The notes: generated by a model not told the origin, from the letters alone. A stretch of 64,000 nt of DNA from an uncultured Gammaproteobacteria bacterium (GCA_963803275.1 CAWDLS010000002.1:99905-163904); one strand, 5' to 3'. Shown: positions 14,959 to 37,523, counted from the first letter of the stretch. Translations and numbers: made by a program.

Positions 14959-16566
14959 CTATCCCGTATACCCGAACTGTTTGATGAAAGGCGCCAGAAT
15001 TGTCTCGATCGAGGCGATCTGGCTGGCATAGTGCTGCCAGCGCCCCCTGGCCCGCGAGTACAGGGGTAATGCGACGTCGATAAAACTCGGTGTGCGTACC
15101 ACACTGGCCCCAGCCTCCATATGGTACGCACGGATATCCGGTGTCCATTCAACGCCGGTAAACTCCAGGATGCGTTTCGACGTGCAGTCGAAGTCATCGA
15201 TAAGATCTTCGTAGCGATATTCAAGAAAGCGCAAGCCACCGAATACCGATTTATAGTGATTCCACAGCCCCATGGTAGCGGAATAGAAACGCGCCGTGTC
15301 CTCGAGGTCCAGAAAGTGAACCATTGCCGAATTAAGCCTGAACGACTGCATAAAGCAGGAGAGACAGACATCGCGTGGATCGCGCAGGGCGACCAGGAAG
15401 CGCGCGGCTGGAAAAAGCCGGTGTATGAATCCGGCCTCGATTATGTTCAGTGGAAGTTTATCGACATAAATCATTCCAGCATTGCTGCCACCCGTGACAC
15501 GGTGCAGTTCGCTGAGATAACGATCCCGGAGACCGGCCAGTTCAGGGTCGGACAATCTGGCAAGCATGGCCGGGTAATTTTCGGAAGCGAGCGTGACATT
15601 CTTCAGTTGCGAGATGAGGTTTGTGACCAGTGGTTCTTCCTGCGTAGTGACGATGTTTGAACGGGTTCTTAGTATCTGTTCAACCAGGGTCGTGCCGGAA
15701 CGTGGAAAACCGACGAAAAATACCAGTCGATCCCCGTCATCATCCACGGCTGGATCCGGTTCCGGTCCTGATAACAGGCTACGGAAACCCTCAATCCGCT
15801 TCAGATAAAACGCCTTCCCGTAAGGCGCATTCCGGGTGACGCTCTGCCAGATCGCATTAGCGCGCCGGAAGGCGTCGAACGCATCATCGTACTCGCCGGA
15901 ACGATCGAGCGCATGACCCAGCTCGCCGAGCAGGCCGGCAACATCGATGGTATTCTCGTGCGCGGCGATGGCCTGTCGCAACCGGGAGATGGATTCTCGC
16001 TCGTTACCGGATTGGCGATCCAGCCGCGCCAGCACGAGGTGGGCGGCCGGGTTGTACTGCTCCAGTCGCAAGGCTTTGGTTGCAGCATGACGGGCATCAT
16101 TATTCCTGCGCAGCATTTCCAGCGTTAATGCCATGTTGCCATAGACATTCGCGTCCGCCTGTCCATGGTCATCCAGCCATTGATAGATCTCCAGCGACTG
16201 CTCGTATTTGCCCCGGTTTGCGTAAAGGTTACCCAGGGTTATGCGGGCCTCGCCTGTGTCAGGCCGGCAGTCGCAATCGGCCGCTGCCGCCAGATACCGT
16301 TCCGCCTGTTCAAGATCCCCGGCGACCAGATACACCTGGCCCAGCGACAACAGCGCCTGATAGGATTTTTGTCGTTGGAGCGACGCGTTCAGGCTGGCCT
16401 GCGCCTCGGGAATCTGACCCTTCCTGGCACAGACCAGCCCATCCAGCAGCCATAGTTGTGGATCATCCGGATTGATGCGGAGCAGTTTCTGTGTGATCCG
16501 CCGTGATTCATCCAGCAGACCTTGCCGGAACAGGCGGCAGGCGTGCTGTTTGGTTTCTTCAGACAC
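14959..16566 (-). CDS. TPR-repeat + sulfotransferase-domain protein
   Basis: TPR repeats N-terminal; C-terminal FFVGFPRSGTTLVEQIL (5'-PSB-like loop) and LRDPRDVCLS (3'-PB-like); start placed at GTG 16566 coupled to upstream stop (GTGTCTGA); ATG 16602 possible. Confidence 0.7.
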   Translation of the reverse strand: MSEETKQHACRLFRQGLLDESRRITQKLLRINPDDPQLWLLDGLVCARKGQIPEAQASLNASLQRQKSYQALLSLGQVYLVAGDLEQAERYLAAAADCDCRPDTGEARITLGNLYANRGKYEQSLEIYQWLDDHGQADANVYGNMALTLEMLRRNNDARHAATKALRLEQYNPAAHLVLARLDRQSGNERESISRLRQAIAAHENTIDVAGLLGELGHALDRSGEYDDAFDAFRRANAIWQSVTRNAPYGKAFYLKRIEGFRSLLSGPEPDPAVDDDGDRLVFFVGFPRSGTTLVEQILRTRSNIVTTQEEPLVTNLISQLKNVTLASENYPAMLARLSDPELAGLRDRYLSELHRVTGGSNAGMIYVDKLPLNIIEAGFIHRLFPAARFLVALRDPRDVCLSCFMQSFRLNSAMVHFLDLEDTARFYSATMGLWNHYKSVFGGLRFLEYRYEDLIDDFDCTSKRILEFTGVEWTPDIRAYHMEAGASVVRTPSFIDVALPLYSRARGRWQHYASQIASIETILAPFIKQFGYTG

Positions 16567-19026
16567 CGAGCGCTTCCAGCAGGGGCCCAAGATGCTCTTC
16601 ATAGCGTCGCCAGCGCTCCACCGAGCTGGTATAGATCGGCTTCCGGACCTGGTCGTAGCTCGGCGTCTTCACGGTGCGCTTGAGTTGGTGATAATTCAGG
16701 CAGCGTTCGTCCCACTCCAGGCCGACGAATTCCAGATCCTGCGGCTCATGTCCTCCTGACTGGCGACCACCTCTTCGTATTGTACGTCCAGGATCGGTAT
16801 TGCCAGCGTTTGCTTCCAGTAGTCCATCAACTGCTCGTACCGGCGGTAGTACAGGCCCAGTGATTCAAGGTCACTGGCATAGGTGTGAAAGGAATTGAAA
16901 TGCTTGAAGTAGATCGACAGGCAGGTATCGACAGGGTTGCGTCGGCAATGCAGTACCCGGGCACCGGGAAACAGCAGATCGATCAGGCCCAGTGCCTCGA
17001 AATTGTGTGGCATCTTGTCGACGATTCTTCTGGCTTCGGGCGCGTAACCCTGGAGGTGATCGAGATAATCGCCTGCTATCCGGTCGAGCGTCTCGGTAGT
17101 GGCATCACCCATGCAGGCAGGATAGGGCCACTTGCTGTTCAGGCGGTTTTGCAGCGTACCCGACAAGTGATACATGTCTTCGAGTTCGCCTGCACCGTGC
17201 ACGTCGGGATGGCTGGCAAGAATCTGCTCGATCAAAGTGGTACCTGAACGCGGCATGCCGACAATGAACACGGGTAATTCGGAGCGATTTGATGCTCTTG
17301 GTCGAGACGCCTGCCTGTCGCGGCTATAAACGCCCCGCAGTGACAAGAACTGATGTTCGGTCTGGCTGACTTTGTAGCCCGGGTGGTCCTCGGTATTCGC
17401 GGCGTGATAATGCTCGAAGGCCTTGTCGTGTTCACCAACGTCGTCGTACAGGTCGCCCATGACAAAATTGCGCTGGATGCGTGCCCATTTCTCCAAACCC
17501 TGCGGGTCAAGCTTCTCTAGCAACCCGAGCGCCTGCTCACGCTGGTCGAGATGTCGCGCCATCACACCGAACGCCAGTGCGACCAGGATATTGACCTTGT
17601 GATCCGACTGCAAGGGCAGCAGAATCGCCTCCGCTTCCTGGAACCGGCCAAGCCGCTCCAGTACCATCACCTGTCCCGCTGAGGCCTCGACATAGTACGG
17701 CTGCAGTGTAACCGCTTCGCCAAAGCGCTCGAAGGCCTGCTCGAACTTGCCCTGTTGCTGCAGGCAGGTTCCGTAATGGTAATGGGCTTCGGCCAAGTCG
17801 GGTTTCAGATCGATGGCACGCCGGTAGGCTGCATCAGCTTCTGGAAAATTCTCGCGGAATCGCTCGACACACAGCAGTGCATTGCCCAGGTTGTTCCAGG
17901 CAGCCGCGTACCCGGGATCATGTCGGGTGGCAGAGCGGAACGTCGTGATGGCCTCGTCAAACCGGCCTTGCGTCATGAGTGCGGTTCCAAGGTTGTTCTC
18001 GAATTCGGCGCAGCCCGGAAGAGTCACCAGCGCAGCCCGGAATCGCTGTTCCGCCTGTACGGGATCGCCATCCTGCTGCGATAGCAGTCCAAGGTTGTTA
18101 TCCGCCAGTGCACAACGCGGATCCAGTTCGATTGCGCGTTCGAATGCGGATTTCGCGCCCGACTTGTCGCCCAGGGCAAGCCGTGCACCGGCCAGCGTAT
18201 TGTATGCATCGGCGTAGTCGCCGCGAATCTCCAGGGCCTGCTCGATCCATTCGAGCGCCTCCTGCGGGCGACCGGCCTCGATCAGCGTCAGTCCAAGAAG
18301 GTTGCTGGCCTCTGGCCGGTCGGGATGTTTCTCGATAGCAGAGCGATAGGTCGCGATCGCTGCATCGAACTCATGCCGCCGGCGCTGGAGATTACCGATC
18401 TCGATCCATGCATCGGTATTGTCCGGATCAAGTTGCACGATGCTTCGAAAACAATCGATAGCAGCCTTGTAGTCGCCCCTCCGCTCCAGTGCCAGCCCCC
18501 TGTTCAGCAGCGGACCGGGTGCTGTGCGATCAAGTTTTATGGCCTTGTCGAACTGCTTCAGAGCTGCATCGACCTCACCGCTGTCCAGCAGCACCAGTCC
18601 GAGATTGTTGATGGTGGTGGCCTGCCGGGGATCAAGGCGTACCGCCTCGCGCGCGTACCGGACCGCATCGGTCAGGCGGCCGAGTTGCCGAAGCACGATG
18701 GTGAGATTGACATAGGGCGATACGTAGGCAGGATTCAACCGGATGGCGCGTGCGTAAGCATCGGCCGCATCCTCCCATGAACGCAGGCTCTGCAACGCGA
18801 CGCCGAGGTTGTACCAGGCGCCGATATGGCCAGGCGCGAGTTCCACCGCCTTGCGACAACAGGCCACAACCTCGTCGAGTGCACCGAGCTGGGCCTGGAC
18901 GCTGGCGCACAGGAACCAGGCCTCGGCCTGGTCAGGCTGTTCCCGGCAATACTGTTCGCACAATGGCAGCGCTTCCCTGGTTCGTCCGGACTGGACCAGC
19001 GCCACGATTTTACGGGCGTTCACCAT
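16559..19026 (-). CDS. long TPR-repeat + sulfotransferase-domain protein (single-base frameshift near 16734 in the given sequence)
   Basis: About 15 TPR repeats then FIVGMPRSGTTLIEQILASHP; track ORF ends ...RRIWNSSAWSGTNAA at 16696, but the -1 frame continues RILEFVGLEWDERCLNYH...TPSYDQVRKPIYTSSVERWRRYEEHLG, matching paralog C-termini, to a TGA at 16559-16561. Confidence 0.65.
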
Positions 19027-19028
19027 CG

Positions 19029-20450
19029 CTATATTCCCGGGTCCTTCACCAGGACATAGACCTGCCCGGCGATGCTGTCACCATATTCCTCCCTCAGAAC
19101 GATGTCCTGTACCGCAAGCACACGAAGGTCCGATGCCAGGGCCAGCGTGGTGATATAGCCCGGGCTTTGTGCATAGCGACCGGACGGGCACAGGGTATAG
19201 GGCCGGTCATCGTTCGCTCTTTCTGTTGAAAAGCACAGCAGCCCGTGATCGCGCAGTGCGCGGGCACAGGCCGGAAATATCGCCGTCAGGTTGCCGAGAT
19301 AGACGAACACGTCGCCAGCGAGGATCAGGTCATACGCAGTGTCCTGACCGGCAAGAAAGGACGCAATATCATTCTGCGCCAGATGGTCATAGATACCCAG
19401 CGCCCTGGCCTTGTCCAGCATTCGTTCCGAAAGATCAACCCCGGTAATCGAGTTCGCGATATCGGTGAAGTTCTGCGCGCACAGACCGGTGCCGCAGCCC
19501 AGGTCCAGAATATCGAGCGAGGGCGGGTTTTTGCCCAGCGCACTGTGTACCAACCGGTTCATCACCACCGGCGCCGAATACCCAAGCGCACCAACCAGGT
19601 GCTCGTCGAAATTATCCGCATAGCCGTCGAACAGCTCCTGGACGTAGCTGACCGGCGACCGGGGCGGCGCCTCGCGCACGCCGATTACTGACAGAAAATA
19701 GGCAGCATTGGCATGTTTTGGGTCAATCGAGAGGATGTGACGGAAACACTGCTCCGCCTCCGCGATCGCATTGCGCTTGTGCAGGAGAAAGCCAAGGTAA
19801 TAGAGCGCGCTGATGTGCCCGGGCGCACCCGCGAGCGCTTGTTTCAGGCAGGCCTCCGCTTCGGCCGGGCGGTTGTCGAACAATCGCGACATGCCCAGGT
19901 TGGCAAGCGCATCGGGATAATCCGGACGCAGGCGCACGGCCTTCTCGAAACACTCCGTGGCTTCCGCAACCTGGCCCATCTGCCGCAGGGCCGTACCCAG
20001 GTTGTTGAGCGCCTCCGGGTGTTCAGGCGCTATAGCCAGCGCAGTGCGCAGCACGCCCTCGGCTGCGGCAAAGTTTCCAGCGTCGATCAGTGCGCAACCC
20101 AGGTTCACCTCAGCGCCGGTGTAGCCTGGCCTGAGCCGGAGCGCCTCGCGAAACTGGACCTCCGCCTCCGCACGCTTGCCGAGCGTCCGCAACACGCAGC
20201 CAAGATTATTGCGCAGCGTGGCATCGACCGGGCGCAACGCGACCGCACGCTCCAGCGCCGACTCCGCCGCAGGATGGTCTCCGGTCATGCCGCAGACTAT
20301 ACCGAGCAGCCCGGCCACCTCGGCATCGCCGCACTCGCCGACCATTTCGAGAACCCGGCGCGCTTCCGCGAGACGATGCGTCTGAATGAGTTGCTGTGCT
20401 CGCTGCTTCGCGATTGTCCTGGTATCGGAAGTGTCCACTGCCTGAAACAT
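19029..20450 (-). CDS. TPR-repeat + class I SAM-dependent methyltransferase (paralog of 11710-13221)
   Basis: TPR N-domain; C-terminal ILDLGCGTGLCAQNF...ITGVDLS...AGDVFVYLG; start taken at MFQAVDTSD (ATG 20450) since the upstream part of the track ORF lacks homology. Confidence 0.7.
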   Translation of the reverse strand: MFQAVDTSDTRTIAKQRAQQLIQTHRLAEARRVLEMVGECGDAEVAGLLGIVCGMTGDHPAAESALERAVALRPVDATLRNNLGCVLRTLGKRAEAEVQFREALRLRPGYTGAEVNLGCALIDAGNFAAAEGVLRTALAIAPEHPEALNNLGTALRQMGQVAEATECFEKAVRLRPDYPDALANLGMSRLFDNRPAEAEACLKQALAGAPGHISALYYLGFLLHKRNAIAEAEQCFRHILSIDPKHANAAYFLSVIGVREAPPRSPVSYVQELFDGYADNFDEHLVGALGYSAPVVMNRLVHSALGKNPPSLDILDLGCGTGLCAQNFTDIANSITGVDLSERMLDKARALGIYDHLAQNDIASFLAGQDTAYDLILAGDVFVYLGNLTAIFPACARALRDHGLLCFSTERANDDRPYTLCPSGRYAQSPGYITTLALASDLRVLAVQDIVLREEYGDSIAGQVYVLVKDPGI

Positions 20451-20470
20451 CTCGTTGTTGTATGGTTGAT

Positions 20471-21268
20471 TCAGAGAGTATAACGGAACAACGACTGCAG
20501 TTCTGGCGGCAGCGCCATCAGCGCCTCGGGGCTGATGATCAGCGGCTTCTGGTGATAAAAGTTGGTTGAATCGCGCCACCACGGGCGGCAATAAATGAGA
20601 TAGAGAATCGGGCGTATGGCCCGGGTGTAGTTCGCGGTTCCGCCGTGCAGCAGACGTGCGTCGAAGAGATAGCACCCGCCAGGTTCCGGGAGAATGGAGA
20701 CCGAATCCATCAGATCAGGTTGTGTGTTTTTCCAGTCGATCGTACGGCGGTGGGTTCCCGGCCAGAACCGGGTCACACCGGTCATGGCGTCGAGCGGGAC
20801 TAGCGGTATGGCCAGCGTGATCGCGTACGGCGGCAGCGACTGCGACAAGCACTCGTCTTCGTCGAAGAGGAACGGAAAGTCGACGTGTACGTGCTGATCA
20901 GCGGAATCTGGCCGTGACGTGACCGCGACATAGGCGTCGAGAATGCAGTTGCCGCCCAGCAGACGCCACAACACGGGCATCACCGCGGCGGGGGCAAACA
21001 GGGCCGGGTTACTGAAGGGCGGTTTGACTTCGATCGCAATCATGGTGCGCTTGTCGCCCACTTCCCTGCTTGCATCTATCGTGTTGCCATACTCCTGTCT
21101 GTAGGCGCAGTTCACCTCATCAAGATAGTCTGGTGAGAATACATTATTGATAATCACCGCGCCGTGGGTCAGGAACGATTCACTGCAGGCATCGACGACG
21201 GCAGCAGACTCATCACCGCAATCCGGGGCGTGGAAAGTCATGGTTTGCATCAAGGTCTCAGTCGTCAT
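20471..21268 (-). CDS. phytanoyl-CoA dioxygenase (PhyH)-like 2OG oxygenase
   Basis: MTTETLMQTMTFHAP...QHVHVDFPF...HGG; HxD...H arrangement; start ambiguous (21268, 21249 or 21241); the first 85 codons of the track ORF overlap the upstream TPR gene and are probably not translated. Confidence 0.5.
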   Translation of the reverse strand: MTTETLMQTMTFHAPDCGDESAAVVDACSESFLTHGAVIINNVFSPDYLDEVNCAYRQEYGNTIDASREVGDKRTMIAIEVKPPFSNPALFAPAAVMPVLWRLLGGNCILDAYVAVTSRPDSADQHVHVDFPFLFDEDECLSQSLPPYAITLAIPLVPLDAMTGVTRFWPGTHRRTIDWKNTQPDLMDSVSILPEPGGCYLFDARLLHGGTANYTRAIRPILYLIYCRPWWRDSTNFYHQKPLIISPEALMALPPELQSLFRYTL

Positions 21269-22481: not shown

Positions 22482-23165
22482 ATGTTGAACAAAAATATTG
22501 ACCTGGCGGCCTGCCAGAAAACGTTCCGGGAAACGGGGTTTGTCCGAATCGAGAATGTCCTCGAACCTGCCTACGCCGATAACATAGAAGCCGCCCTGAA
22601 GACCGGCATCAGCTGGGACCTTTGTTACCTGAACGAATCGGGCCCGGTTTCGATACCGCAGGCAGAATACCGGGCCTACACACTGGCACAGTCGGCCGAG
22701 CTAAACAGCGCAATTCTGAAGCAGGCGCAGAACGGGTTCGCGTATTTTTACTATCGTTCGGACCTGGTCCGAAGCAAGCACGAGGTACTCAGTACCTTTT
22801 ACCGCGAGCTGTCCGCTGATCATTGCCTCGGAGTATTCCGGCAGATCACCGGCGAAACGGGGATCAGGGCCGTCAATGGACAGGTTGCCTGTTTTACACC
22901 GGCCTGTTTTCTGAAGCGGCACCAGGACACGACCGACAAGGAAAAGCGGTTCGCCGCCTATGTATTCAACTTTACCCGCGGGTGGGACCCGGACTGGGGC
23001 GGGCATCTGCACGTTCTCGACAAGGAACTCAGGAACGTCAATGTCTTCGAGCCGAGTTTCAATACCTTAGTCATCTTCAAGGTGCCCAGGATTCACTTCG
23101 TGTCCCAGGTCAGCAACTATGCACGTGGAGCTCGCTTTACAGCGACAGGTTGGCTGCTGGGCTGA
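22482..23165 (+). CDS. 2OG-Fe(II) oxygenase family protein (paralog A)
   Basis: HxD (FLKRHQDTTD) ... GWDPDWGGHLH ... second His; 227 aa; paralogous to 24247-24945. Confidence 0.55.
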   Translation: MLNKNIDLAACQKTFRETGFVRIENVLEPAYADNIEAALKTGISWDLCYLNESGPVSIPQAEYRAYTLAQSAELNSAILKQAQNGFAYFYYRSDLVRSKHEVLSTFYRELSADHCLGVFRQITGETGIRAVNGQVACFTPACFLKRHQDTTDKEKRFAAYVFNFTRGWDPDWGGHLHVLDKELRNVNVFEPSFNTLVIFKVPRIHFVSQVSNYARGARFTATGWLLG

Positions 23166-23167
23166 TA

Positions 23168-24246
23168 TCAGCCACGGTCGGACATGCCAGTCTCACCATC
23201 AAACCGCACCGGTGCATCCCATCCCTCGAAGCTTTCCATCCAGTCCAGACCAACCTGAATCTCAGCCTCGTGGTGCTCTGACAGGACCAGCATTTCATAC
23301 TGCCGCTCGGCCGATGAATAGCTCCTGGTCGTGTCCTTGGAGTGTTTCTGCCAGAGGCCGGAATCGATGACTGCATCGATGTCCGCCTCATTCAGGCCAA
23401 GAGCCAGAACCCGGTTGCTGTCCAGCAGGACGCGGCGGGTATCGGATAGCAGTTGCGCCGAGCTATGCACATGCATTGATCTGATCGCTCCCTCAGTACC
23501 TTCCTGTAGCTATGGATCTGTGTCATCCATACCTAAGCCGCCGACTCGGCATCGGGCAAGCCGGATACATCCACCGCATGGAGTACCGAATGTGTGTCCA
23601 CCGCGTTCTCCCGTCGCGAACGTCCGAGGAAGTTTTTTAGAAACTGCCGTCGTCCTGCGGTTTTCAGGTTGGATGCAATAAACTCCCTGGCCTGCGAATA
23701 AAGCAGAATGGCCCTGCTGTCTTCATGCAATGCGAGAATGTCGGTGATTATATTGTTGCATGAATCAGTGGGTTTGATGACGGTGGTTTCTGCTCCGCTC
23801 CACGCCTTGGATAACATCGACAGGGAAAAGCGTAACAGTTCCGGCCATCGACCGGTCACAAATTGCGGGTACTCCGCGGATCTTCGCCTGGCGACGGCAG
23901 GCTGATGCAAGTGAACCGGTTCGCGATAGACCATCGTACGGCCGGCGATATCGAAGGCCCGGCTCAGCAGCGTTGAGCAGCAATATGCCGTATGAAAGAT
24001 CAGCCGGCCTGGAGGCAGACTCGATGAAAGGTCGATGGCCATGGCCTGGTCGATGGCTAACCCGTACTGATTGAGGGTCGGGCTGACAAGCCGGTCATCG
24101 AGAAAACTGCTTTCCCGAAATGATTCCCGCGTCATTTCCCGGAAGATGGCAATCCTGGAGTGAAAGTCGTACTTGTGGAAGTACAAATCGGGATTTCTGA
24201 TACGCGCGATCAGGTTCTGCATATGAGCGACTACGTCTTTGCACAC
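23168..24246 (-). pseudogene. uncharacterized-family protein (paralog of 25126-26181) interrupted between about 23476 and 23535
   Basis: ORF 23533-24246 (..IFHTAYCCSTLLSRAFDIAG..IKPTDSCNNI..) aligns with the N-terminal 230 aa of the 351-aa paralog, and ORF 23168-23476 (..DAVIDSGLWQKHSKDT..) aligns with its C-terminus (..DAQLGQVLSGPVFQQHSKSG..); one gene split by frameshift/stop, possibly a sequencing indel. Confidence 0.5.
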
Positions 24247-26181: not shown

Positions 26182-26186
26182 TTCGC

Positions 26187-27689: not shown

Positions 27690-27705
27690 GGCTGACAACC
27701 AGGAC

Positions 27706-28530: not shown

Positions 28531-28878
28531 CAGGGTAGTCTGATACAGCGATGCAGATCGCATTCTCCAGTATCTGCGGTGCGTGCATCGGATTCAGGGT
28601 GAAGCCCGCTTAACAGTTTATCTACGCAATCTGTTGCACGCCCGAATGTTTCAGTACATACAAGGTTTACGTAACGAGAGCATTTTCCGCCGGGATGTAC
28701 ACCATGCAATTCCAACGGGAAGACTGTTTTCGATTGGAGTCCGGCCGTATGTCGGATTCTTCAGGTTTTCCTCATCTTTCTTTAGATATAGGATATCGAG
28801 CATGCAGGCCGTTGGAAGGTTACCGGCAAACGGGTAACAAAGCTGTATCACCAATAGTTCGAGAAGGGATTGAGCACC

Positions 28879-29931
28879 ATGCTGTCATCTTGGTCCATTG
28901 ACGAAATGTTTGCGGAATTCCGTGCGCTCGGTGGCACGGCCGACAATGTAGAGCAGCGAGAAGGCCCCTTTGGTTCGGGTCTGTTTCCGGTCGACCCGGC
29001 GCAGCCAGTCGCTGTCCACATACCTGCTGCCATGCTTGTCCCCAGCCGGCATGTGATTCAGGAAGGAATAGACCTGGTCGTGTCACCGGCATCTCACCTC
29101 GATCCACAGGTGAAGGATTTCTTCACCCGCTACCAGCGTGCGTTTTCCTGGGGGGGCGAGGCGCGCACGAGTATTGAGACTTTTCACGGGCAGTTTGCCG
29201 AACTGCCTGACGATATTGTGCGAGCGCTCGCGAAGATCGGCATCGAGATCAATCAACCGCTCAGCAAGGAATGGTTACCCTTTGAGCTATTCAAGATGAG
29301 CAGAACCTTTACATATCACGATGAGCCGGTTTTCATGCCTGTTATCGATCTGATCAATCATGGACGCGATGCACAGGGCTTCGATACCAGGGATGGAATC
29401 CGTGTTGCGGGTTCATTCCCGGGCGAGGTCCTCGTTCACTATGGACCTGCAGACAGCATTGGCCGCTTCTTCAGCCAACAGTTCGTCAGCGACGAATTGT
29501 CGGCGTTCTCTCTGACAATCACGATTCCCGTCGCAGCCGGCGGGAAAACCCTTTACGTTGGTCGCCGGATCTTTGAGAAGCAGACGGCGAGCGCCATGCC
29601 GCTGCTTCCGGTAGTTCGGGAGGACGGTGACCGCGTCACGCTCTCTCACCTGATGCTGGGGAACGAACGTATGCCGCGCCTTCCAAGGACCCTTTTCCGG
29701 CAGGTTCTGCCATCCCTTGCGACTGAACAGGCCGACGAGCTGTTCCAGAGAATCGTAAACACCAATATACTGTTGCTCATCGGCCTGCTTGATGCGCTTG
29801 ACGCACGCGAAGACGAGATAGCGCGACAACTCCGGAGGGTAGCCCGGCTCCAGCTCAAGGATATAGCCCAGTCTTATGGGGCACTGGACTCAGACGCAAT
29901 CATTATGAAACGCAAGGTTATTCAGCAATAG
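28879..29931 (+). CDS. hypothetical protein with SET-domain-like motifs (possible protein-lysine methyltransferase)
   Basis: ATG 28879 preceded by GAGAAGGGA RBS; VIDLINHGRDAQGFD and GEVLVHYGP resemble the SET NH-x-C/PN and GEEL-x-x-YG motifs; low confidence. Confidence 0.4.
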   Translation: MLSSWSIDEMFAEFRALGGTADNVEQREGPFGSGLFPVDPAQPVAVHIPAAMLVPSRHVIQEGIDLVVSPASHLDPQVKDFFTRYQRAFSWGGEARTSIETFHGQFAELPDDIVRALAKIGIEINQPLSKEWLPFELFKMSRTFTYHDEPVFMPVIDLINHGRDAQGFDTRDGIRVAGSFPGEVLVHYGPADSIGRFFSQQFVSDELSAFSLTITIPVAAGGKTLYVGRRIFEKQTASAMPLLPVVREDGDRVTLSHLMLGNERMPRLPRTLFRQVLPSLATEQADELFQRIVNTNILLLIGLLDALDAREDEIARQLRRVARLQLKDIAQSYGALDSDAIIMKRKVIQQ

Positions 29932-29954
29932 GCCATCTGTTCACGAGACAACCC

Positions 29955-30857
29955 ATGCCGAACAGCCACTATCAATCTGCCGTATCACCTGATTACTGGA
30001 AAAATCTGAGCCCGGATCTGCATATTACCGACTTTCCGTTCAAGGACTTTCCACATTTCCCGATTCCGGATTCTCAAATCCTGCAGAGCTTCCAGAACCT
30101 GAAACAGGAGGGGTATTTTCAAACCCCGCCTGTCATCCCTAAGGCTATGACGGCACGCCTTGCCGCGACGGTTCACAACATCGTATCGGCCGGTTTCCCT
30201 GCCGTGTTCGCATTTGTATATGACGAATACTGGGGTATTGTCAGAGGAATAGAGCAAATCTTCAAACCTGCGCTCGGTGAAAACTATTTGTTGAGTCCGG
30301 GTGACATGTGGATTTGGCATGTAGACGAGCACGGCCGAAGCTCGGGCTGGGGCCCGCACAGAGACTTGCTGGATACAACCAGCCTTCGAACCGACGGGAG
30401 CCCACGAATTCTCACGGTTTGGGTTCCGCTCACTGATGCAACTCCTCTCAACGGATGCATCTATCTGGTACCGACTCATCGGGACCCGGATTACCCCGAC
30501 AAACTGAATGAGCGATCCGTAGCCTTGGATACGTTGCAGAGCATCCGCGCCCTGCCCGCGGCTTCAGGCAGCCTGCTCGGCTGGAGTCCGGTTATCCTGC
30601 ACTGGGGTGGCCGTCACAGTGGCCACAGCGAAGGAGCAAGAATCAGCGTCGCCTTTTATCTCAATGATGGCGCTCCTGATCTCGACGGCGGGATTTCGGC
30701 CAGAGAAAGTACATTTGTGCCTTTCTGGTACAGGCTTGGTGCAATAGGTGCGATGTTATCGCTGTTCGATGGCAGCCCGCTTGCCAGTGATTTGCGTTTC
30801 CCGACCGCACTTAAGTCTGTATTGCAACCCTATCTTGACCGGGTAAGACGCAGTTGA
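29955..30857 (+). CDS. PhyH-like 2OG-Fe(II) oxygenase
   Basis: WIWHVDEHG ... GPHRD ... HWGGRHSGH; HxD/E...H facial triad arrangement. Confidence 0.5.
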   Translation: MPNSHYQSAVSPDYWKNLSPDLHITDFPFKDFPHFPIPDSQILQSFQNLKQEGYFQTPPVIPKAMTARLAATVHNIVSAGFPAVFAFVYDEYWGIVRGIEQIFKPALGENYLLSPGDMWIWHVDEHGRSSGWGPHRDLLDTTSLRTDGSPRILTVWVPLTDATPLNGCIYLVPTHRDPDYPDKLNERSVALDTLQSIRALPAASGSLLGWSPVILHWGGRHSGHSEGARISVAFYLNDGAPDLDGGISARESTFVPFWYRLGAIGAMLSLFDGSPLASDLRFPTALKSVLQPYLDRVRRS

Positions 30858-30943: not shown

Positions 30944-32506
30944 TCACACCGTTTGATCGACAAGGTCCGCAAGCGCTCCCAGATGACGCTGGTAATTCCG
31001 CCATCGGCCCACCGATTTATCGTGGACTGGACGGCGCACATCATCATAGCTAGGCGTGCTCACGACCCGCACATTTTCGTGAAAGTGCAGGCACTGTTCG
31101 TTCCATGCGAGACCGCAGAACTCAACCAGCTTGCGGGCGCCGTGCTCGATTTCGCCAACCAGATCCTCGTAACGCACCTCGTACAGGGGTACACGGATGA
31201 TGGTTTTCCAATGCGCCATCAGCGCCTGGTACTGGCGGTAGTAGTCAGCCAGGGCATCCGTGTCATTTGTATAGGGATGATTCGCCGTCATCTGCTGGAA
31301 CCAGATCGAGAGGCAGGTGTCACGCGGGTCGCGTACACAGTGAACGACCCGGCAACCCGGAAACAGCAGATCGATATATCCCAGCGCCAGGAAGTTGTGT
31401 GGCATTTTGTCGATGATCCGCATCGCAGCGGGCGCGAGCCGCGAAACCGTGTCGATGTAGCCCTGCGAAGCAAGGTCGAGAGCAGACACAGTTAGCCGCC
31501 CGAGACCCTCCGGCGTGGACACAGGACCTCCCAAAGCATGCACGATCCGGGCGATATCGTTCCGCTCTCCAGCACCGTACACGTCCGGGTGACTGGCCAG
31601 TATCTGTTCAACCAGGGTCGTACCCGAACGCGGCATGCCGACGACGAAAACTGGGAGCACGGTTTTGATGCTACTGCGGGAAAGTTGCGGATGACGTGCG
31701 GATGAAAAGGCCGCGGTAATGCCGTAAAAGGTATTCCGGGTCTGCTCCGGATCGTAGTGATAATTCAGCAACCCGTTACCTGCCCTGTAATGTTCAAAGG
31801 CCCGGTCATAATCGCACAGGTTGTCATAGAGCTTGCCGAGCGCGAAGTGGATATCGCTTCGAAGCGATTCTGCCATCGGGGTGGCAACGAGTTCTTCGAG
31901 TAGCGTGGCCGCCGCGGATTCATCTCCGGTGTGCTTCGCCAGCACTGCATTGGCAAGCGCGACTACCGGAGCGACGGGCCGCTTGGCAAGCGGTCTTTCC
32001 AAAATGTCCATGGCCTGCCGATGGTCGCCTTCGTACTCGTAACTGAGCGCCAGCATGGCGCAGGCGTCCGGGTGTTCCGGCTGCCGCGACAGGATGACGC
32101 GTAACTGGGTACGCGCCTCCAGGTATCGCCCGGCCGCACTCAACAGACGGCCAAGGCAGACGCGGGCTGGAGTTCGTTCCGGGTCAAGCGCAACGGCTTC
32201 ACGGTACACCGTTTCGGCACTTCCGGACTGTGATAGCGATTCGAAACGATGTCCGGCTTGAATCAGTGCGTGGTAGAGGTGTCCGGCGACAGTCGGGTTG
32301 TTGGGCACGAGTGCGCGCGCCTTGCGCAGTGGCTCCACGGACATGATCGGCCGCCCGAGCGCGAGCAGGGCGGACCCGAGCAGTAACCAGCAGTGCGGAT
32401 TACCGGGATCCTCGACAGTCTGATGCTCAGCGGCACGCCAGGCCTCTTCGTTGCGACATGCTCGCAACAGATCCTGTATCCGCTCTAATGGGTCTGCCAC
32501 TATCAT
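30944..32506 (-). CDS. TPR-repeat + sulfotransferase-domain protein
   Basis: FVVGMPRSGTTLVEQILASHPDVYGAGE ... VHCVRDPRDTCLS; ATG 32506 overlaps upstream TGA (TGATG junction). Confidence 0.7.
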   Translation of the reverse strand: MIVADPLERIQDLLRACRNEEAWRAAEHQTVEDPGNPHCWLLLGSALLALGRPIMSVEPLRKARALVPNNPTVAGHLYHALIQAGHRFESLSQSGSAETVYREAVALDPERTPARVCLGRLLSAAGRYLEARTQLRVILSRQPEHPDACAMLALSYEYEGDHRQAMDILERPLAKRPVAPVVALANAVLAKHTGDESAAATLLEELVATPMAESLRSDIHFALGKLYDNLCDYDRAFEHYRAGNGLLNYHYDPEQTRNTFYGITAAFSSARHPQLSRSSIKTVLPVFVVGMPRSGTTLVEQILASHPDVYGAGERNDIARIVHALGGPVSTPEGLGRLTVSALDLASQGYIDTVSRLAPAAMRIIDKMPHNFLALGYIDLLFPGCRVVHCVRDPRDTCLSIWFQQMTANHPYTNDTDALADYYRQYQALMAHWKTIIRVPLYEVRYEDLVGEIEHGARKLVEFCGLAWNEQCLHFHENVRVVSTPSYDDVRRPVHDKSVGRWRNYQRHLGALADLVDQTV

Positions 32507-34680
32507 CAACCCGGGTTCTTGCACCACAGCCGCCATGCCTGACGATAGCGGCTTTCAAGGCGCATGCAAAACCCCTCCCCATCCATGAGCGGCGACGTTC
32601 GCATGCGATTGCGTAATGACTCGTGCAATGTCGCGAGGAGCGAACCGTCGTTCGCAAGGTCAATCGCGCCAGCCTCGTATTCGCCGAGGCTGGCTGCTGC
32701 AAACTCCGACAGTCCAACCTGGTGTAACAGACTCAGCCCGACCCGGCCGGCATGGGCCGGGCCAGCAAGCGTCATGACAGGCACACCCATCCAGAGCGCT
32801 TCGCAGGTCGTGGTGGTGCCATTGTATGGAAACGTGTCGAGTGCGATGTCCATGCGCTGATAACAGGCAAGATGCTCTGCGGTGGACGCGATGTACGGAA
32901 GCAGCACGAGACGGGTAGCCTCTACCCCATGGTCGCCGAATCGTACGGCTATCCGCTCACGCACCCTGACATCGGCAAGCGCCGCTCCCTTGAGGAGCAG
33001 GCGGCTACCGGGTACCGATCGCAGGATCGTGGACCAGCTAGTGACGACCGAATCGTTCACCTTGGCAAGATTATTGAGCGAACCGAAGGTCACGAAGCCA
33101 TTGTGTAAGTGGGGTGGTGGACCGCAATCCGGTGTTTTCGTAGGTGGCGAATAACAAAGGAATCCGTCGGGAATTCGCAGCAGTGTTTCGGTCGCGCGGT
33201 CATCCGCTTCAACGGCAGGATCGGCCCATTCGTCAGTCAGGCGATAGTCCATGGCCGGGAGCCCAGTTGTATCCGGGTAACCGAGCCAGCTCATCTGCAC
33301 GGGGGCGGGGCGGTACATGAATGCACCCAGACGATTGCCACTGGTGTGCCCGGAAAGATCCACCAGTATATCAATCCCGTCCGCAGCGATTAGTGTGGAG
33401 AGATCGCGATCGCTCAATGTAAAAACATCACGCCAGAGGTCCGCCGCTTCGCGCAGCGTGCTGGTCGTGGCATCGTGTCGTTCGGGTCTAAGATTTGAGT
33501 AGCAGTAGACAAGGTGATGCGCCTGATCACGGTGGGTGAGCACCGGTTCGATGAAATGCGCGACGGAATGCAGCCTGAAGTCGCATGATACGTAGCCTAT
33601 TCGCAACACACGTTCCGGGTCGGGCTCATTCGCGTGCCGTATCCTTTCGTCCGGCACGGTGCCATAACTCTCACCCCAGACTCGATGCGCATCGTAGAGT
33701 TCCTGTGGTGAAATCTTGTCGGAGTAATGCAGGTCCATTAGCAGGTGTTGCTGCATTTCCGTGTTTGTGGGGTCGAGTTCGACTGCTCTCCGGTCGTGCT
33801 GCAACATCGCTCCGATCCGGCCTTCGTCAAGGAAGAGACCGGACAGGCTGGCATGCGCGCGTGCATTGCGTTCATCCGCATCGAGAAGCAACTGAAGATC
33901 GCTGGCCGCATCGGTCAGTCGACCCGTGTGGCGGAGTATCATCGCGCGTCCGAAACGCGCCTCGACATGACCGGGGTCAGCGGCAAGACATGCCTCGAAG
34001 CCGCGCAGTGCCTCTTCATGACGGCCCAGCTCGGACAAGATGAACCCCAGTTGATAGCGGAGATCTGCCTGCGAGGGCAGCTGCGCGAGGCCCTGTTCAG
34101 TAACCGCCAATCCCTGGGTGAGTTCATCCCGGTCGATCAGCGACCTGGACCAATCCAGATAAGTACCGGCCATCTTCGGGTGAGCGGCAACCAGTTGTCG
34201 GTAGCAGGACTCCGCCGCGCCATATTGTCCCAGCCGTTGGTATGCCGACGCGATGTTATTGATGGCCTGGAGCTGGCTCGGGGCGATAGCGAGAGTCTCC
34301 TGGTAGAGGCTTATCGCCAGCTCGGGTCTGCCTTGTTGAAGAACACTGTCGGCCAGGGCGGTAATGATCTCTGCATTGCCGGGCTGGAGTGACCTTGCGC
34401 GGCGCAGGATTTCTTCGGCCTCGGCTGCCCGTTCCTGACGCAGCAGCGCAATACCGAGATTGTAAAGAATTACATATTGATCAGGCGCGAGTGTCAGTGC
34501 TTTGCGACAGCATTTCTCGGCCTCGCCAAAAGCGCCGAGTGCACCATGGACGGCGCCAACCAGGAACCAGAGCTCGGGATCCCCGGGAATTTTATTACAT
34601 AACGCAGAACCCAGCGCAAGCGCCTCGGAAAATCGGCCCAGGCGGCACAACTCCCTAAGTTCGGTCTTCCTATCCGGCAT
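32506..34680 (-). CDS. TPR-repeat + GT41 (O-GlcNAc-transferase-like) glycosyltransferase
   Basis: About 10 TPRs followed by RIGYVSCDFRLHSVAHFIEPVL ... VDLSGHTSGNRLGAFMYRPAPVQMSWLGYPDTTG ... FGSLNNLAKV ... LLLKG, the signature of bacterial OGT/SPINDLY-type GT41 enzymes. Confidence 0.7.
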   Translation of the reverse strand: MPDRKTELRELCRLGRFSEALALGSALCNKIPGDPELWFLVGAVHGALGAFGEAEKCCRKALTLAPDQYVILYNLGIALLRQERAAEAEEILRRARSLQPGNAEIITALADSVLQQGRPELAISLYQETLAIAPSQLQAINNIASAYQRLGQYGAAESCYRQLVAAHPKMAGTYLDWSRSLIDRDELTQGLAVTEQGLAQLPSQADLRYQLGFILSELGRHEEALRGFEACLAADPGHVEARFGRAMILRHTGRLTDAASDLQLLLDADERNARAHASLSGLFLDEGRIGAMLQHDRRAVELDPTNTEMQQHLLMDLHYSDKISPQELYDAHRVWGESYGTVPDERIRHANEPDPERVLRIGYVSCDFRLHSVAHFIEPVLTHRDQAHHLVYCYSNLRPERHDATTSTLREAADLWRDVFTLSDRDLSTLIAADGIDILVDLSGHTSGNRLGAFMYRPAPVQMSWLGYPDTTGLPAMDYRLTDEWADPAVEADDRATETLLRIPDGFLCYSPPTKTPDCGPPPHLHNGFVTFGSLNNLAKVNDSVVTSWSTILRSVPGSRLLLKGAALADVRVRERIAVRFGDHGVEATRLVLLPYIASTAEHLACYQRMDIALDTFPYNGTTTTCEALWMGVPVMTLAGPAHAGRVGLSLLHQVGLSEFAAASLGEYEAGAIDLANDGSLLATLHESLRNRMRTSPLMDGEGFCMRLESRYRQAWRLWCKNPG

Positions 34681-35416
34681 AACCGTGCCGGGCCAACCAG
34701 TTACTGGTCAGTGCCGCAAGCCGTGCCTGCTCGACGGGCTTGAGTAGCGTCCGCCACTCACCGCCCACGCTATCGCTCACATGTCCGCCCTGAAATCCGG
34801 TAACTTCGTCGTAATGGCGGACGCTGCCATCGGCGTTGCGCTGCACGGGACCCGGTATTCGCCCCCCGCCGTCCGATTCAGTGTCGCCGAGTTCCGCAAC
34901 ATAGCTGCGCACCTTCTCCCGCGCATATTCGCTTGCTATCAGCGCAACCTGTTCGGGCGACACTGGAAGATCGATGAAAGACGCGATGCGTGTGATCGTT
35001 TCCACCGGCCGCTGCATGATGTTTTCGTATCGCACGTCGAGCATATCGAACGGGGACTCGACGAGATAGTAATCCACGAGCGCCAGGGACTCGCTGAAAC
35101 CTTCAATCGCTGCTTCGAAATTGCAGCGGGTGAAGCGCATGTATGAGAGCAGCGCATCACGCGCATCGCGCAAGTTGCACAGTATCTTGAGGCCGGGAAG
35201 TGTACCTTCGTAGCGGGCATGCACCTTGATACAAATTAGGTCGGTCGAGGCCACTCCATGGCGGATGGCGAGCCGGAACGACGGAATCGGGTCTGGAGGA
35301 ATATGCACAGGCCAAGGTGTATGGCCCGACAGGCGGATCAACCGGCGCGCAACGTTGTAGGTCCACATGGAGCCCGTGCGTGGCATGCCTGCGACGATCA
35401 CGATGGGTTTAATCAT
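34670..35416 (-). CDS. sulfotransferase-domain protein (no TPR)
   Basis: MIKPIVIVAGMPRTGSMWTYNV ... CNLRDARDALLS; start ATG 35416 lies 8 nt after upstream stop. Confidence 0.6.
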   Translation of the reverse strand: MIKPIVIVAGMPRTGSMWTYNVARRLIRLSGHTPWPVHIPPDPIPSFRLAIRHGVASTDLICIKVHARYEGTLPGLKILCNLRDARDALLSYMRFTRCNFEAAIEGFSESLALVDYYLVESPFDMLDVRYENIMQRPVETITRIASFIDLPVSPEQVALIASEYAREKVRSYVAELGDTESDGGGRIPGPVQRNADGSVRHYDEVTGFQGGHVSDSVGGEWRTLLKPVEQARLAALTSNWLARHGYAG

Positions 35417-35423
35417 ATCAGGA

Positions 35424-37523
35424 TCAACCGGATTCTGTCGGGACAGGTGTGATCGCCAGGGCATCGAACAACGGCTGCAGATATTTCTCGTAATTTCTCC
35501 ACCGCTGCACAGAGTGCCTGTAGATCGGCTGGCGGACCTGGGCGTAGCTCGCCGTCTTAGCTTTCCGGCCGGACTCGTAAAAACGCAGACAGCGCTCGTC
35601 CCAGGGCAGGCTGCAGTGCTCGAGCAGCGCGCGGCTGCCCGCCTCGGGATCGTCGACCAGGGACTCGTACCGTGTCTCGAACATCGGCACCCCCAGCGTA
35701 TCGCGAAAATGGGTCATCATCCTCTGGTACTGGCGATAATGCTGGCCCAGGTGTGTCAGATCATAGGCATAGTTGTGATAGCTCGCGAAGTCCTGGAAAT
35801 AGCAGGACAGGCAGACATCGGCGGGGTCACGCAGGCAGTGGATAATGGGCGCATCCGGGAACAGGCGATGTAGCAAGCCGAGAAACTGGAAGTTGTGTGG
35901 CATCTTGTCGGTCACGAAGCGGGCACCCGGGGCCAGAGTGCGCAACTCATCAAGGTAGGCCCTGGCCATGTCCTCGCAGTCGGCCTGCGTCAGATGAGGC
36001 AGGTAATCCGGATAGCCGAGGGTGCATCCGGCACAGGCGCGTGCTGTGCCGGCGATACGCGCGATGAAGGGCAATTCGTCACCCGCATGGACCTCGGGGT
36101 GACTGGCCAGGATCTGCTCGACCAGCGTGGTACCCGAGCGCGGCATACCAACGATGAAGATCGGCGTCACATCTGAGGCGGGTACAGCGGACGGCAGACG
36201 GGCGAAGACCTCCGGCGACAGCACCGCGATCAGCTTGTCGACATGGCGTTCATCGTCCGCCGCGTTGTACCGGTAGCGCTTCAGCCGGTTACCCGCCTCG
36301 AAATGCCGGAAGGCCTCATCGTAGCGCTGCTGCCGGTCGTAGAGTTCGCCGACCCGGAAGTGCAGGTGGCACATTACAATTTCGTTGGACATACCGGACC
36401 GAAGACGGAACTCGATTCGCTCGATCGCCTTCTCGCACTCACCGAAATGGCGGCTCAGCCGCGCATAGGTATCGAGTGCACGCAGCCCGGCCGCGCCGGA
36501 TTCGATTACCGGTTCGAGCAGCACGTGCGCAGCCTCGAAGTCACCCAGCTTTTCCAGTATGCCCGCCCGCGCGCCCACGAGATCCAGGCCATGGTCGCCG
36601 GGCAGTACCTGCTGGTAGGCCTCAAGTGCTCCCTGTAGCAATCCAGAGCGTTCGAGGGCAAGCGCTTTGTTGTACTGTGCCTCGGGATATCCCGGATCTA
36701 GGTCAAGGCTGTCACAGAAACATTTCAGGGCCTCGTGGGTATTACCGAGATCGAGCTGTGTGAGGCCAAGATCCATCAAGGGCCCCAGCTCTCCAGGCGC
36801 CGCCTCTACGGCCTGCGCATAGGTCTGCGCCGCGGCGGCAAGCTGGCCGTATTCGTGGTAGATGGCGCCGATGTTGCGCAGCGCCTCAAGATCATTGGGG
36901 ACGCGTTGCAGCACCTGCAACCAGACCGCGAGCGCCTGCTCGTCCTGATCGCTCGCGTGCAGGGCAGTCGCAAGACCGGCGAGATAGCGCGGCTCGCCGG
37001 GCGTCATTTGGCTCGCGTGTCCATAATGACGCGCGGCCTCGGGCCAGCGGCCCAGCGCATGAAAGGCCGCGGCAAGGTTGTAGTGGACAGCGGGATCATC
37101 CGGGTTCAGCGCAACGGCCTGCTCGTAGCAGGCAATGGCCTCCCCGTGCCGATACAGCGCCGAAAGCGCCGCACCCAAGTTGCTCAGGTCTCTGGCCTCC
37201 CCCCCCGACAGGGACACGGCCTTGCGAAAACTCGTCTCGGCCTCCGCAGCGCGGCCAAGTTGCAACTGGAAATGCCCCAGGTTGCGGTAACCGGCAACGA
37301 CCGAAGGGGCCAGCATCGTCGTCTGCCGGGCGCAGCGTGCGGCGTTTTCCGGATCGTCCAGCGTTCCGTATACCACACCGAGCATGTGCCACATGTGAGG
37401 ATCGCGCGGACACTGCCGGCACAGCTGCTCATAATGCTCCACGGCCTCACTCAGTCGACCCTGCTGAAAATGTTCACGGGCATGACATTCGAGTTCGGCG
37501 ATCTGTGACGAGGACAATTCCAT
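35424..37523 (-). CDS. TPR-repeat + sulfotransferase-domain protein
   Basis: 699 aa; about 12 TPRs then IFIVGMPRSGTTLVEQILASHPEVHAGDE ... IHCLRDPADVCLS. Confidence 0.7.
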   Translation of the reverse strand: MELSSSQIAELECHAREHFQQGRLSEAVEHYEQLCRQCPRDPHMWHMLGVVYGTLDDPENAARCARQTTMLAPSVVAGYRNLGHFQLQLGRAAEAETSFRKAVSLSGGEARDLSNLGAALSALYRHGEAIACYEQAVALNPDDPAVHYNLAAAFHALGRWPEAARHYGHASQMTPGEPRYLAGLATALHASDQDEQALAVWLQVLQRVPNDLEALRNIGAIYHEYGQLAAAAQTYAQAVEAAPGELGPLMDLGLTQLDLGNTHEALKCFCDSLDLDPGYPEAQYNKALALERSGLLQGALEAYQQVLPGDHGLDLVGARAGILEKLGDFEAAHVLLEPVIESGAAGLRALDTYARLSRHFGECEKAIERIEFRLRSGMSNEIVMCHLHFRVGELYDRQQRYDEAFRHFEAGNRLKRYRYNAADDERHVDKLIAVLSPEVFARLPSAVPASDVTPIFIVGMPRSGTTLVEQILASHPEVHAGDELPFIARIAGTARACAGCTLGYPDYLPHLTQADCEDMARAYLDELRTLAPGARFVTDKMPHNFQFLGLLHRLFPDAPIIHCLRDPADVCLSCYFQDFASYHNYAYDLTHLGQHYRQYQRMMTHFRDTLGVPMFETRYESLVDDPEAGSRALLEHCSLPWDERCLRFYESGRKAKTASYAQVRQPIYRHSVQRWRNYEKYLQPLFDALAITPVPTESG

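Follow-up and report, generated by a model that had tools for sequence, protein, structure and literature searches.

Which molecules are sulfated by the products of an array of sulfotransferase genes in an uncultured gammaproteobacterium? We analyzed a stretch of 64,000 nucleotides from this bacterium (GCA_963803275.1, CAWDLS010000002.1:99905-163904; hereafter, the window), in which four genes, termed ST1-4, encode tetratricopeptide repeats (TPR) fused to a sulfotransferase domain. The catalytic domains of ST1-4 are nearest to the tyrosylprotein sulfotransferases (TPSTs), both by sequence and by predicted fold. We tentatively propose, as a quite possible explanation, that ST1-4 sulfate the precursors of neighboring secreted matrix proteins in the cytoplasm, in a reaction dependent on 3'-phosphoadenosine 5'-phosphosulfate (PAPS). 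The family itself is known, being named in databases; the noteworthy points are the TPST-like domain, a conserved association that links arrays to VPLPA/PEP-CTERM proteins and to modifying enzymes of the protein type, and a cryptic sulfotransferase-fold family. Four enzymes, their likely helpers and two candidate clients lie side by side in the window and form a compact, directly testable system. To our knowledge, protein sulfation is almost unknown in bacteria, RaxST and its substrate RaxX being the sole studied case. A literature search combining TPR, sulfotransferase and PEP-CTERM or exosortase found no paper on the architecture or on the association.

TPR-sulfotransferases with a TPST-like catalytic domain

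The four genes were first described in a sequence-only reading of the window as TPR arrays followed by a sulfotransferase domain, and the Pfam matches bear out this layout; all four genes lie at the stated coordinates, on the minus strand (Table 1). An N-terminal TPR array and a C-terminal Sulfotransfer_3 domain are joined in one polypeptide, which is the layout denoted by the database product name 'TPR repeat-containing sulfotransferase family protein'. Sulfotransfer_3 (PF13469) matches ST1, ST2, ST3 and ST4 with E-values of 1.5e-30, 5.7e-41, 6.5e-43 and 6.8e-46, respectively (107.6-157.7 bits; gathering cut-off, 27). The catalytic part measures 238-257 amino acids (aa), in agreement with the length of roughly 250 aa given in that reading, and many TPR families match N-terminal to it. 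A hidden Markov model (HMM) for TPR built from these proteins counted about 7, 14, 5 and 11 repeats in ST1-4, and the AlphaFold model of ST3 has 15 helices ahead of the catalytic domain, forming about seven pairs; the range is thus about 5-14 repeats rather than the 8-15 proposed before.

The PAPS motifs quoted earlier are present, with variants in ST1. The sequence GMPRSGTTL.EQILASHP occurs in ST2-4 and is replaced by GFPRSGTTLVEQILRTRS in ST1, R(D/N)P.D.CLS occurs in all four proteins, and TPSY..VR.P....SV.RWR.Y occurs in ST2-4, with a looser version in ST1. The description of the C-termini as near-identical was overstated; conservation there is at the level of motifs. Within ST2-4, the catalytic domains are 47-51% identical to one another, and that of ST1 is about 32% identical to those of the other three. 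The start of ST1 can be placed at ATG 16602 (547 aa), as called in a sister assembly, or at GTG 16566. The sister assembly (ENA ERZ25039539, contig_43334) is 99.88% identical to the window at the nucleotide level over 20.7 kb, with a single gap.

With the catalytic domain of ST3 as query, the closest proteins in PDB are human TPST2, human TPST1 and a tick TPST, which match over the whole domain (E ~2e-15), and other sulfotransferase families trail them with E-values of only ~2e-3. The predicted structure of ST3 (predicted local distance difference test score, pLDDT, 92.1; predicted template modeling score 0.86) gave the same picture: in a Foldseek search against PDB, the sulfotransferases among the top 50 matches are all TPSTs, with target-normalized template modeling scores of 0.56-0.67, and for the TPR half, the matches are TPR domains from SPINDLY (SPY) and OGT.

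Equivalents of the TPST2 residues Arg78, Glu99, Lys158 and Ser285 all align in ST1-4. The Arg sits in a loop that binds the 5'-phosphosulfate (5'-PSB loop), G(M/F)PRSGTTL, the Glu at the AGE/QEE/GDE position, the Lys within DKMP/DKLP, and the Ser within TPSY/TASY/TPSF; in ST2 this Ser falls past a frameshift and is present in the sister assembly. The motif of the 3'-phosphate-binding site (3'-PB), including its Arg and Ser, is also kept. Ser285 reportedly has a catalytic role in TPST2. The catalytic Arg, Glu and Lys are invariant over 33 diverse homologs, as are the R, S, G and T residues of the 5'-PSB loop, and alanine mutants of Arg78, Glu99 and Lys158 in TPST2 are inactive (PMC10951654, on the tick TPST). 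Loss of the catalytic Lys, Arg or Ser, suggested earlier as a possible sign of inactive proteins, is not seen in ST1-4, which retain the Arg/Glu/Lys/Ser set. From these residues, ST1-4 look like catalytically competent, PAPS-type enzymes.

The likeness to TPST1 and TPST2 (PDB 3AP1, 5WRI; tick TPST, 8W5Z) therefore consists of the G.PRSGTTL 5'-PSB loop, the 3'-PB site and the four catalytic residues, at an identity of merely 23-26%. TPSTs are type II membrane proteins with an N-terminal anchor and a lumenal catalytic domain, whereas ST1-4 lack a hydrophobic N-terminal segment, are predicted to be cytoplasmic and carry a TPR array instead. Neither a signal peptide nor a transmembrane segment was found in any enzyme of the island, the maximal 19-residue Kyte-Doolittle values of the ST proteins being 1.2-1.6; the outer-membrane proteins and the secreted proteins PEP-A and PEP-B do possess such segments. 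The rhizobial Nod-factor sulfotransferase NoeE shows weak similarity to the ST proteins in the P-loop region; they score 20-42.5 bits against its NCBIfam model (NF052394; cut-off, 500) and are not members of that family. OGT and SPINDLY resemble ST1-4 in having an N-terminal TPR superhelix and a C-terminal group transferase, although the transferase differs in both fold and chemistry, being a GT-B glycosyltransferase of family GT41 in the former and a P-loop sulfotransferase in the latter.

Age of the paralogs and extent of the family

The array had been described as an expansion. We found no recent local amplification: ST1-4 are old paralogs, and a syntenic locus (L001, from the metagenome-assembled genome (MAG) GCA_041395565.1) carries collinear orthologs of ST4, ST3 and ST2 with 65%, 62.5% and 69% identity, respectively. 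An ortholog of ST4 with 73% identity was found in a further MAG (locus L003), and the ST4 orthologs of both loci directly adjoin an ortholog of the secreted protein PEP-B. Recent tandem duplication was rejected on the grounds of the identities among the paralogs and the presence of orthologs elsewhere. The TPR parts of ST1-4 share 23-36% identity over partial stretches.

Domain shuffling, which a comparison of catalytic and TPR halves could reveal, was also rejected, because the two halves agree on their best match. The catalytic and TPR halves of the L001 proteins pick the same paralog in the window, with 76% and 51% identity for ST3 and 76% and 59% for ST4. For TPR-sulfotransferases of more distant genomes, both halves are closest to ST2, and ST1 is an outlier (31-36%); ST2 is, by these comparisons, the 'generic' type that homologs in distant genomes match best.

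The identity to distant homologs is 26-33% for the TPR halves vs. 51-62% for the catalytic halves. The faster divergence of the TPR part is consistent with the earlier suggestion that it sets acceptor specificity; it is also what degenerate repeats do.

The TPR-sulfotransferase architecture is commonplace, and the supposed expansion is ordinary for the family. Among 8,000 candidates scored, more than 7,400 are full-length homologs with the same Pfam content; some of these are already named 'tetratricopeptide repeat-containing sulfotransferase', and one bears the product name given above in UniRef. The catalytic domain retrieved 31,737 representatives of 50%-identity clusters at E<=1e-3, of which 11,003 remain with the stricter limit of E<=1e-30. 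The TPST-like fusions to TPR thus form one of the larger uncharacterized enzyme families. The best 150 matches of the catalytic domain all have long N-terminal extensions, and many have 2-6 sulfotransferase domains. Some homologs (among P0122-P0160) are giant proteins, as long as 2,819 aa, in which two to six sulfotransferase domains occur; they look like tandem arrays fused into single polypeptides, with TPR arrays presumably between the domains.

Gene neighborhood and the candidate acceptors

ST1-4 belong to a dense block of genes without export signals (11.7-38.5 kb), which is bounded by two paralogous secreted proteins, PEP-A and PEP-B (Table 1). These candidate clients have a signal peptide and are rich in Gly (16%), Ser+Thr (18%) and Asn+Asp (14%). 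PEP-B scores 31.9 bits against the VPLPA-CTERM model TIGR03370 (cut-off, 25.35); PEP-A, with 19.8 bits, stays under the cut-off, although its tail is the same. The block also encodes TPR fusions to glycosyltransferases (GT) and to S-adenosylmethionine (SAM)-dependent methyltransferases, five 2-oxoglutarate (2OG)-dependent oxygenases and one TPR-only protein.

Table 1. Genes and gene groups of the sulfotransferase island and its surroundings, with positions in the window.
Feature	Coordinates	Strand	Remarks
TPR + SAM methyltransferase, second copy	11710..13221	+	left island edge
2OG-FeII_Oxy_5 oxygenase	13227..13883	-	
PEP-A	13981..14763	-	secreted, PEP-CTERM-type tail; candidate acceptor
ST1	14959..16602	-	TPR (~7 repeats) + Sulfotransfer_3; most divergent paralog
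ST2	16559..19026	-	TPR (~14 repeats) + Sulfotransfer_3; 1-nt frameshift at ~16735
TPR + class I SAM methyltransferase	19029..20450	-	
PhyH-family 2OG oxygenase	20471..21250	-	
2OG-FeII_Oxy_3/4 oxygenase	22482..23165	+	prolyl-hydroxylase-type
unkA	23168..24246	-	unkB paralog, split by frame change at ~23462
2OG-FeII_Oxy_3/4 oxygenase	24247..24945	-	also matches Ofd1_CTDD
unkB	25126..26181	+	351 aa; no Pfam match; cryptic sulfotransferase fold (predicted)
TPR + GT9-like	26187..27689	+	heptosyltransferase-like
Free sulfotransferase	27706..28530	+	274 aa, no TPR; PF13469, 81.1 bits
Conserved 350-aa protein	28870..29931	+	
PhyH-family 2OG oxygenase	29955..30857	+	
ST3	30944..32506	-	TPR (5-7 repeats) + Sulfotransfer_3; 520 aa
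TPR + GT41	32506..34680	-	OGT/SPY-type; between ST3 and short sulfotransferase
Free sulfotransferase	34670..35416	-	248 aa, no TPR; PF13469, 31.9 bits; Sulfotransfer_1-like
ST4	35424..37523	-	TPR (~11 repeats) + Sulfotransfer_3; 699 aa
PEP-B	37738..38523	-	PEP-A paralog (64% identity); candidate acceptor
Toluene_X/FadL-like outer-membrane protein	39252..40631	+	conserved neighbor of TPR-sulfotransferase arrays
Large secreted protein	40696..43362	+	N-terminal domain is a third PEP-A/B paralog
XrtA/PEP-CTERM-type polysaccharide genes	43534..50360	+	export protein, outer-membrane protein, chain-length determinant, tyrosine autokinase, ATPase
CysQ, 3'(2'),5'-bisphosphate nucleotidase	51867..52592	-	above NCBIfam cut-off; 14 kb from array

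We compared the window with eight further loci (L001, L003 and L008-L013; nine loci in total), which come from the MAG named above (L001), an Ectothiorhodospiraceae MAG (L003), Sulfurifustis variabilis (L008), and three other NCBI MAGs and one ENA contig. The nearest relatives that bear a name are MAGs of uncultured Ectothiorhodospiraceae and Chromatiaceae. All eight loci carry TPR-sulfotransferases, often two to four of them, which are accompanied in most cases by TPR-GT41 and/or TPR-methyltransferase genes. The gene for a Toluene_X outer-membrane protein lies within 10 kb of the TPR-sulfotransferases in nine of nine loci, and a large anchored paralog or a Cys-anchored protein is encoded nearby in all eight further loci. 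Genes for small VPLPA/PEP-CTERM proteins adjoin the TPR-sulfotransferase genes in seven of these, the exception being L009, which has only the large anchored paralog. The earlier remark that sulfation would be unusual for the PEP-CTERM pathway is thus doubtful, as similar arrays of TPR enzymes lie beside PEP-CTERM genes in other loci.

A broader and less biased sample consisted of 80 metagenome loci with TPR-sulfotransferases, of which 34 are at least 10 kb long. Among these 34, PEP-CTERM or PEP-family genes were found in five of the eight loci with at least two TPR-sulfotransferases vs. none of the 26 single-copy loci (Fisher p ~2e-4). The association is therefore one of arrays with PEP-CTERM proteins, and is not family-wide.

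The sequence-only reading gave equal weight to a polymer as the acceptor. We favor protein acceptors, to which the TPST-like domain and the TPR adaptors point more strongly, as do the GT41 enzyme and the hydroxylases of the protein type that are encoded in the island. In the proposed route, ST1-4 would act in the cytoplasm with PAPS as the sulfate donor. Catalysis would proceed as in TPSTs, with the Arg of the GxPRSGTTL loop, a Glu as the general base, a Lys and a Ser stabilizing the transition state, and RDPxDxxxS forming the 3'-phosphate site. Recruitment and presentation of the acceptor would most probably fall to the N-terminal TPR superhelix, as they do to the TPRs in OGT and SPINDLY. Hydroxyl groups would be sulfated before Sec export and exosortase processing; the target may be Tyr, Ser/Thr, a residue hydroxylated by the oxygenases, or a sugar added by the co-encoded glycosyltransferases, and each ST paralog would serve a separate site or client.

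Several known or predicted systems resemble parts of this route. RaxST of Xanthomonas oryzae sulfates a Tyr residue of the secreted peptide RaxX before export. As it is generally described, RaxST is a cytoplasmic, PAPS-dependent, TPST-like enzyme that acts before export in a Gram-negative bacterium; unlike ST1-4, it has no TPR and its operon encodes a peptidase-containing ATP-binding cassette exporter. No gene for such an exporter (RaxA/B-type) was seen in the lists of open reading frames (ORFs) of the window. Exported proteins are modified in the cytoplasm by HMW1C, which belongs to GT41, and by the autotransporter heptosyltransferases, which are GT9-like; the TPR-GT41 and TPR-GT9-like proteins of the island represent these two families. 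For operons that combine PhyH/beta-hydroxylase 2OG oxygenases, sulfotransferases and methyltransferases, hydroxylation followed by sulfation has been predicted, with secreted Gly-rich proteins from the same operons as the substrates (Iyer et al. 2010, PMC2938197). The island resembles them in its mix of PhyH/2OG oxygenases, methyltransferases and sulfotransferases and in the secreted Gly-rich proteins. Their candidate substrates are collagen-like and phage tail-collar proteins, whereas here they are PEP-CTERM proteins, and neither a TPR fusion of sulfotransferases nor a link to exosortase loci was described for them; the island, by analogy, agrees with what was predicted and extends it by the TPR fusions and the link to exosortases. 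A possible role of TPR proteins in guiding the covalent modification of proteins has also been noted for PEP-CTERM systems (Haft 2006, PMC1569441).

A number of observations weigh against protein precursors as the acceptors. The data fit Tyr, other hydroxyl groups and sugars alike, and the residues of TPST2 that bind acidic peptides are not conserved in the ST proteins, as judged by inspection of the alignment. The route also needs a sulfated, glycosylated precursor to pass the Sec system. The nine loci come from related Gammaproteobacteria of the sulfur-oxidizer type and are not independent. Clustering of the neighbors in the 80 metagenome loci gave no recurring neighbor for lone TPR-sulfotransferases, and in the wider family most genes stand alone, without a PEP-CTERM neighbor, so a tie to exosortase substrates does not hold for the entire family. 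Finally, a genome-wide scan for the PEP-A/B family with exact peptide patterns identified five loci in two MAGs, of which only the copy at the polysaccharide locus (L003) adjoins a sulfotransferase, the other copies (L004-L007) being away from any.

A wider form of the same proposal, which we consider possible but rather doubtful, takes the whole island for a maturation factory, in which TPR-adaptor enzymes would hydroxylate, sulfate (including Tyr O-sulfation), methylate and glycosylate VPLPA/PEP-CTERM precursors, and takes the TPR-sulfotransferase family for the missing source of sulfated glycoconjugates in flocs and granules. Flocs do not form without PEP-CTERM proteins, for which heavy modification is suspected (bioRxiv 10.1101/2023.06.07.544157); Haft likewise noted that these proteins look heavily glycosylated. 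If this were true, the island would be a bacterial counterpart of the maturation of extracellular-matrix proteins in animals.

Alternatively, the array could sulfate the extracellular polysaccharide (EPS), or a lipid-linked repeat unit, of the adjoining XrtA/PEP-CTERM system, each paralog adding sulfate at a separate sugar position and the TPRs docking onto the membrane assembly machinery. We regard this as unlikely. It is favored by the EPS export genes (Poly_export, Wzz/chain-length determinant, tyrosine kinase), which abut the island in the window, L001, L003 and L008-L010, but in L011 and L012 the PEP-CTERM genes are kept and EPS export genes are missing within 10 kb, which suggests that the constant partner is the PEP-CTERM-type proteins and not the export machinery. 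In the window, the chain-length determinant scores 290.8 bits on TIGR03007 (cut-off, 278.85), and the export protein, tyrosine autokinase and ATPase have XrtA-associated models as their best matches, below the cut-offs. The galE gene and then cysQ follow beyond the EPS export genes, and their proximity also speaks for EPS as the acceptor. CysQ removes 3'-phosphoadenosine 5'-phosphate, the by-product and inhibitor of PAPS-dependent sulfotransferases, and is a common housekeeping gene. No gene for adenosine 5'-phosphosulfate kinase or PAPS synthase was seen in the 64-kb window.

Precedent for sulfation of EPS is established in Synechocystis PCC 6803, where the sulfotransferase genes of the synechan (xss) cluster adjoin polysaccharide export genes, as here (PMC8205485); the acceptor there is a polysaccharide, the export system is of another type and no TPR is mentioned, unlike in this island. 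In flocs, granules and sludge EPS, sulfated anionic glycoconjugates are common, and known sulfotransferases are rare in or missing from the dominant genomes (PMC10483923). Against EPS as the acceptor, the E-values of the catalytic domain are about 12 orders of magnitude better for TPSTs than for any carbohydrate sulfotransferase in PDB, and none of the latter is among the Foldseek top 50 of the ST3 model. The island also lacks a repeat-unit GT, Wzx, Wzy or a priming transferase, and the companions of ST1-4 are protein-type enzymes (GT41, prolyl-hydroxylase-like oxygenases). Should EPS be the acceptor, the locus names candidate enzymes for sulfated EPS outside cyanobacteria.

Less likely again are cytoplasmic targets unrelated to the secreted neighbors (other proteins, a small metabolite or a lipid), with the clustering beside other TPR-fused enzymes due to common descent or joint transfer of such an island and not to a common substrate. 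Such targets would suit the very large and widespread family, and the 26 of 34 metagenome loci that hold a single TPR-sulfotransferase without island partners or a recurring neighbor family. They would also suit the fluid content of the island: the segments 26187-30857 and 32506-35464, which encode the TPR-GT9-like protein, both short sulfotransferases, the 350-aa protein, a PhyH oxygenase and the TPR-GT41 protein, are missing from L001, so the island gains and loses modules. The specific enrichment of multi-copy arrays next to PEP-CTERM genes argues against unrelated targets, as does the same position beside a PEP-B-type gene, a Toluene_X protein and the large paralog over nine loci.

With secreted proteins still favored as the acceptors, some features of these proteins were recorded. 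The PEP-CTERM proteins adjacent to arrays (window, L008, L011-L013, L017, L025 and L034) have a common VPVPAAVWLFGSGLLGLVGVARRRK-type tail, which in about two-thirds of them is preceded, 20-25 residues upstream, by a (G/A/S)PFxGxNAxFD motif; two copies of this motif occur in the large paralog. The segment NTSYPYYGD(P/A)TWGYG(L/V)RTQI is invariant at mature residues ~20-45 of the PEP-A/PEP-B paralogs and their orthologs. It contains an N-x-S sequon as well as several clustered Tyr residues next to an Asp, and is not kept in the more distant Sulfurifustis homolog; judging from its residues, it could be a modification site. The C-terminus of the large paralog is a Cys-containing anchor (GGC...WW..G..W..RR) and not a PEP-CTERM tail, and a gene for an Rce1-like/CPBP protease follows its ortholog in L008 and L009. 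This arrangement recalls, by analogy, the Cys-containing CTERM sorting signals assigned to CPBP proteases (Haft, bioRxiv 2023). The Toluene_X/FadL-like protein shows weak, below-cut-off similarity to PorV/PorQ, the cargo shuttle of type IX secretion. No multi-pass membrane ORF of the exosortase (XrtA/EpsH) type is among the listed ORFs of the window, for which no whole-window HMM scan was made, and the exosortase gene may lie outside the 64 kb.

Further sulfotransferase-fold genes and frame breaks

Two shorter sulfotransferases without TPRs had been noted, and both were confirmed. The 274-aa protein is TPST-like over its full length (E 2e-5) and has Tyr at the Glu99 position; the 248-aa protein shows weak similarity to the Teg12, Teg14 and CurM sulfotransferases and has His at this position. 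The products of unkA and unkB belong to a rare family with 64 homologs, a few of which have precomputed Sulfotransfer matches in Pfam. An AlphaFold model for the unkB family (pLDDT 93.7) has only sulfotransferases among its top 50 structure matches in PDB. An hhalign comparison of the unkB family with the alignment of ST catalytic domains gave a probability of 10.6%, and the fold became evident only after structure prediction. The P-loop is replaced by an invariant FHTxFCCSTL in this family, and LKEP and KPTN motifs occupy the Glu and Lys positions. Counting the predicted folds, the locus has eight sulfotransferase-fold genes, versus six in the sequence-only reading. The conserved 350-aa protein resembled, by eye, a possible SET-domain methyltransferase; this idea was dropped, as permissive Pfam and PDB sequence searches returned no match.

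The extent given for ST2 in that reading holds for the sister assembly, where the gene is intact, but is not a single ORF in the window. As assembled there, the ORF spans 16696-19026, with a stop at 16696; one base is missing at ~16735, where ATC-TGG stands in place of the expected ATC-CTG-GAA-TTC, and the last ~55 aa, including the TPSY...RWRRY motif, are in a different frame. The ST2 protein of the sister assembly has 822 aa and is identical to the repaired translation of the window, so the frameshift is either an error of the assembly or a lesion that arose very recently at the strain level. Programmed frameshifting was rejected because the gene is in frame in the sister assembly and the protein is otherwise identical.

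Single-base breaks occur in several genes of the island region (16735; 23462; 40729-41447), and the housekeeping genes look intact. The gene for the large secreted protein has at least three frame changes in the window and is intact in the sister assembly (888 aa). The unkA gene is split alike in the two assemblies, and its L001 ortholog is intact (357 aa). The segment 14.2-34.9 kb is the 20.7-kb one with a single gap relative to the sister assembly. Over 25.4-47.5 kb, 49 gaps were found at 99.07% identity, which suggests that the region around the paralogous N-terminal domains is hypervariable or was poorly assembled. That some or all copies are decaying or non-catalytic (pseudogenes or scaffolds) instead of four working enzymes, as the broken ST2 and unkA frames and the absence of the Glu base from the two short sulfotransferases could suggest, is very improbable, given the intact ST2 of the sister assembly, the retention of all catalytic positions in ST1-4 and the conservation of their orthologs at 62-76% identity.

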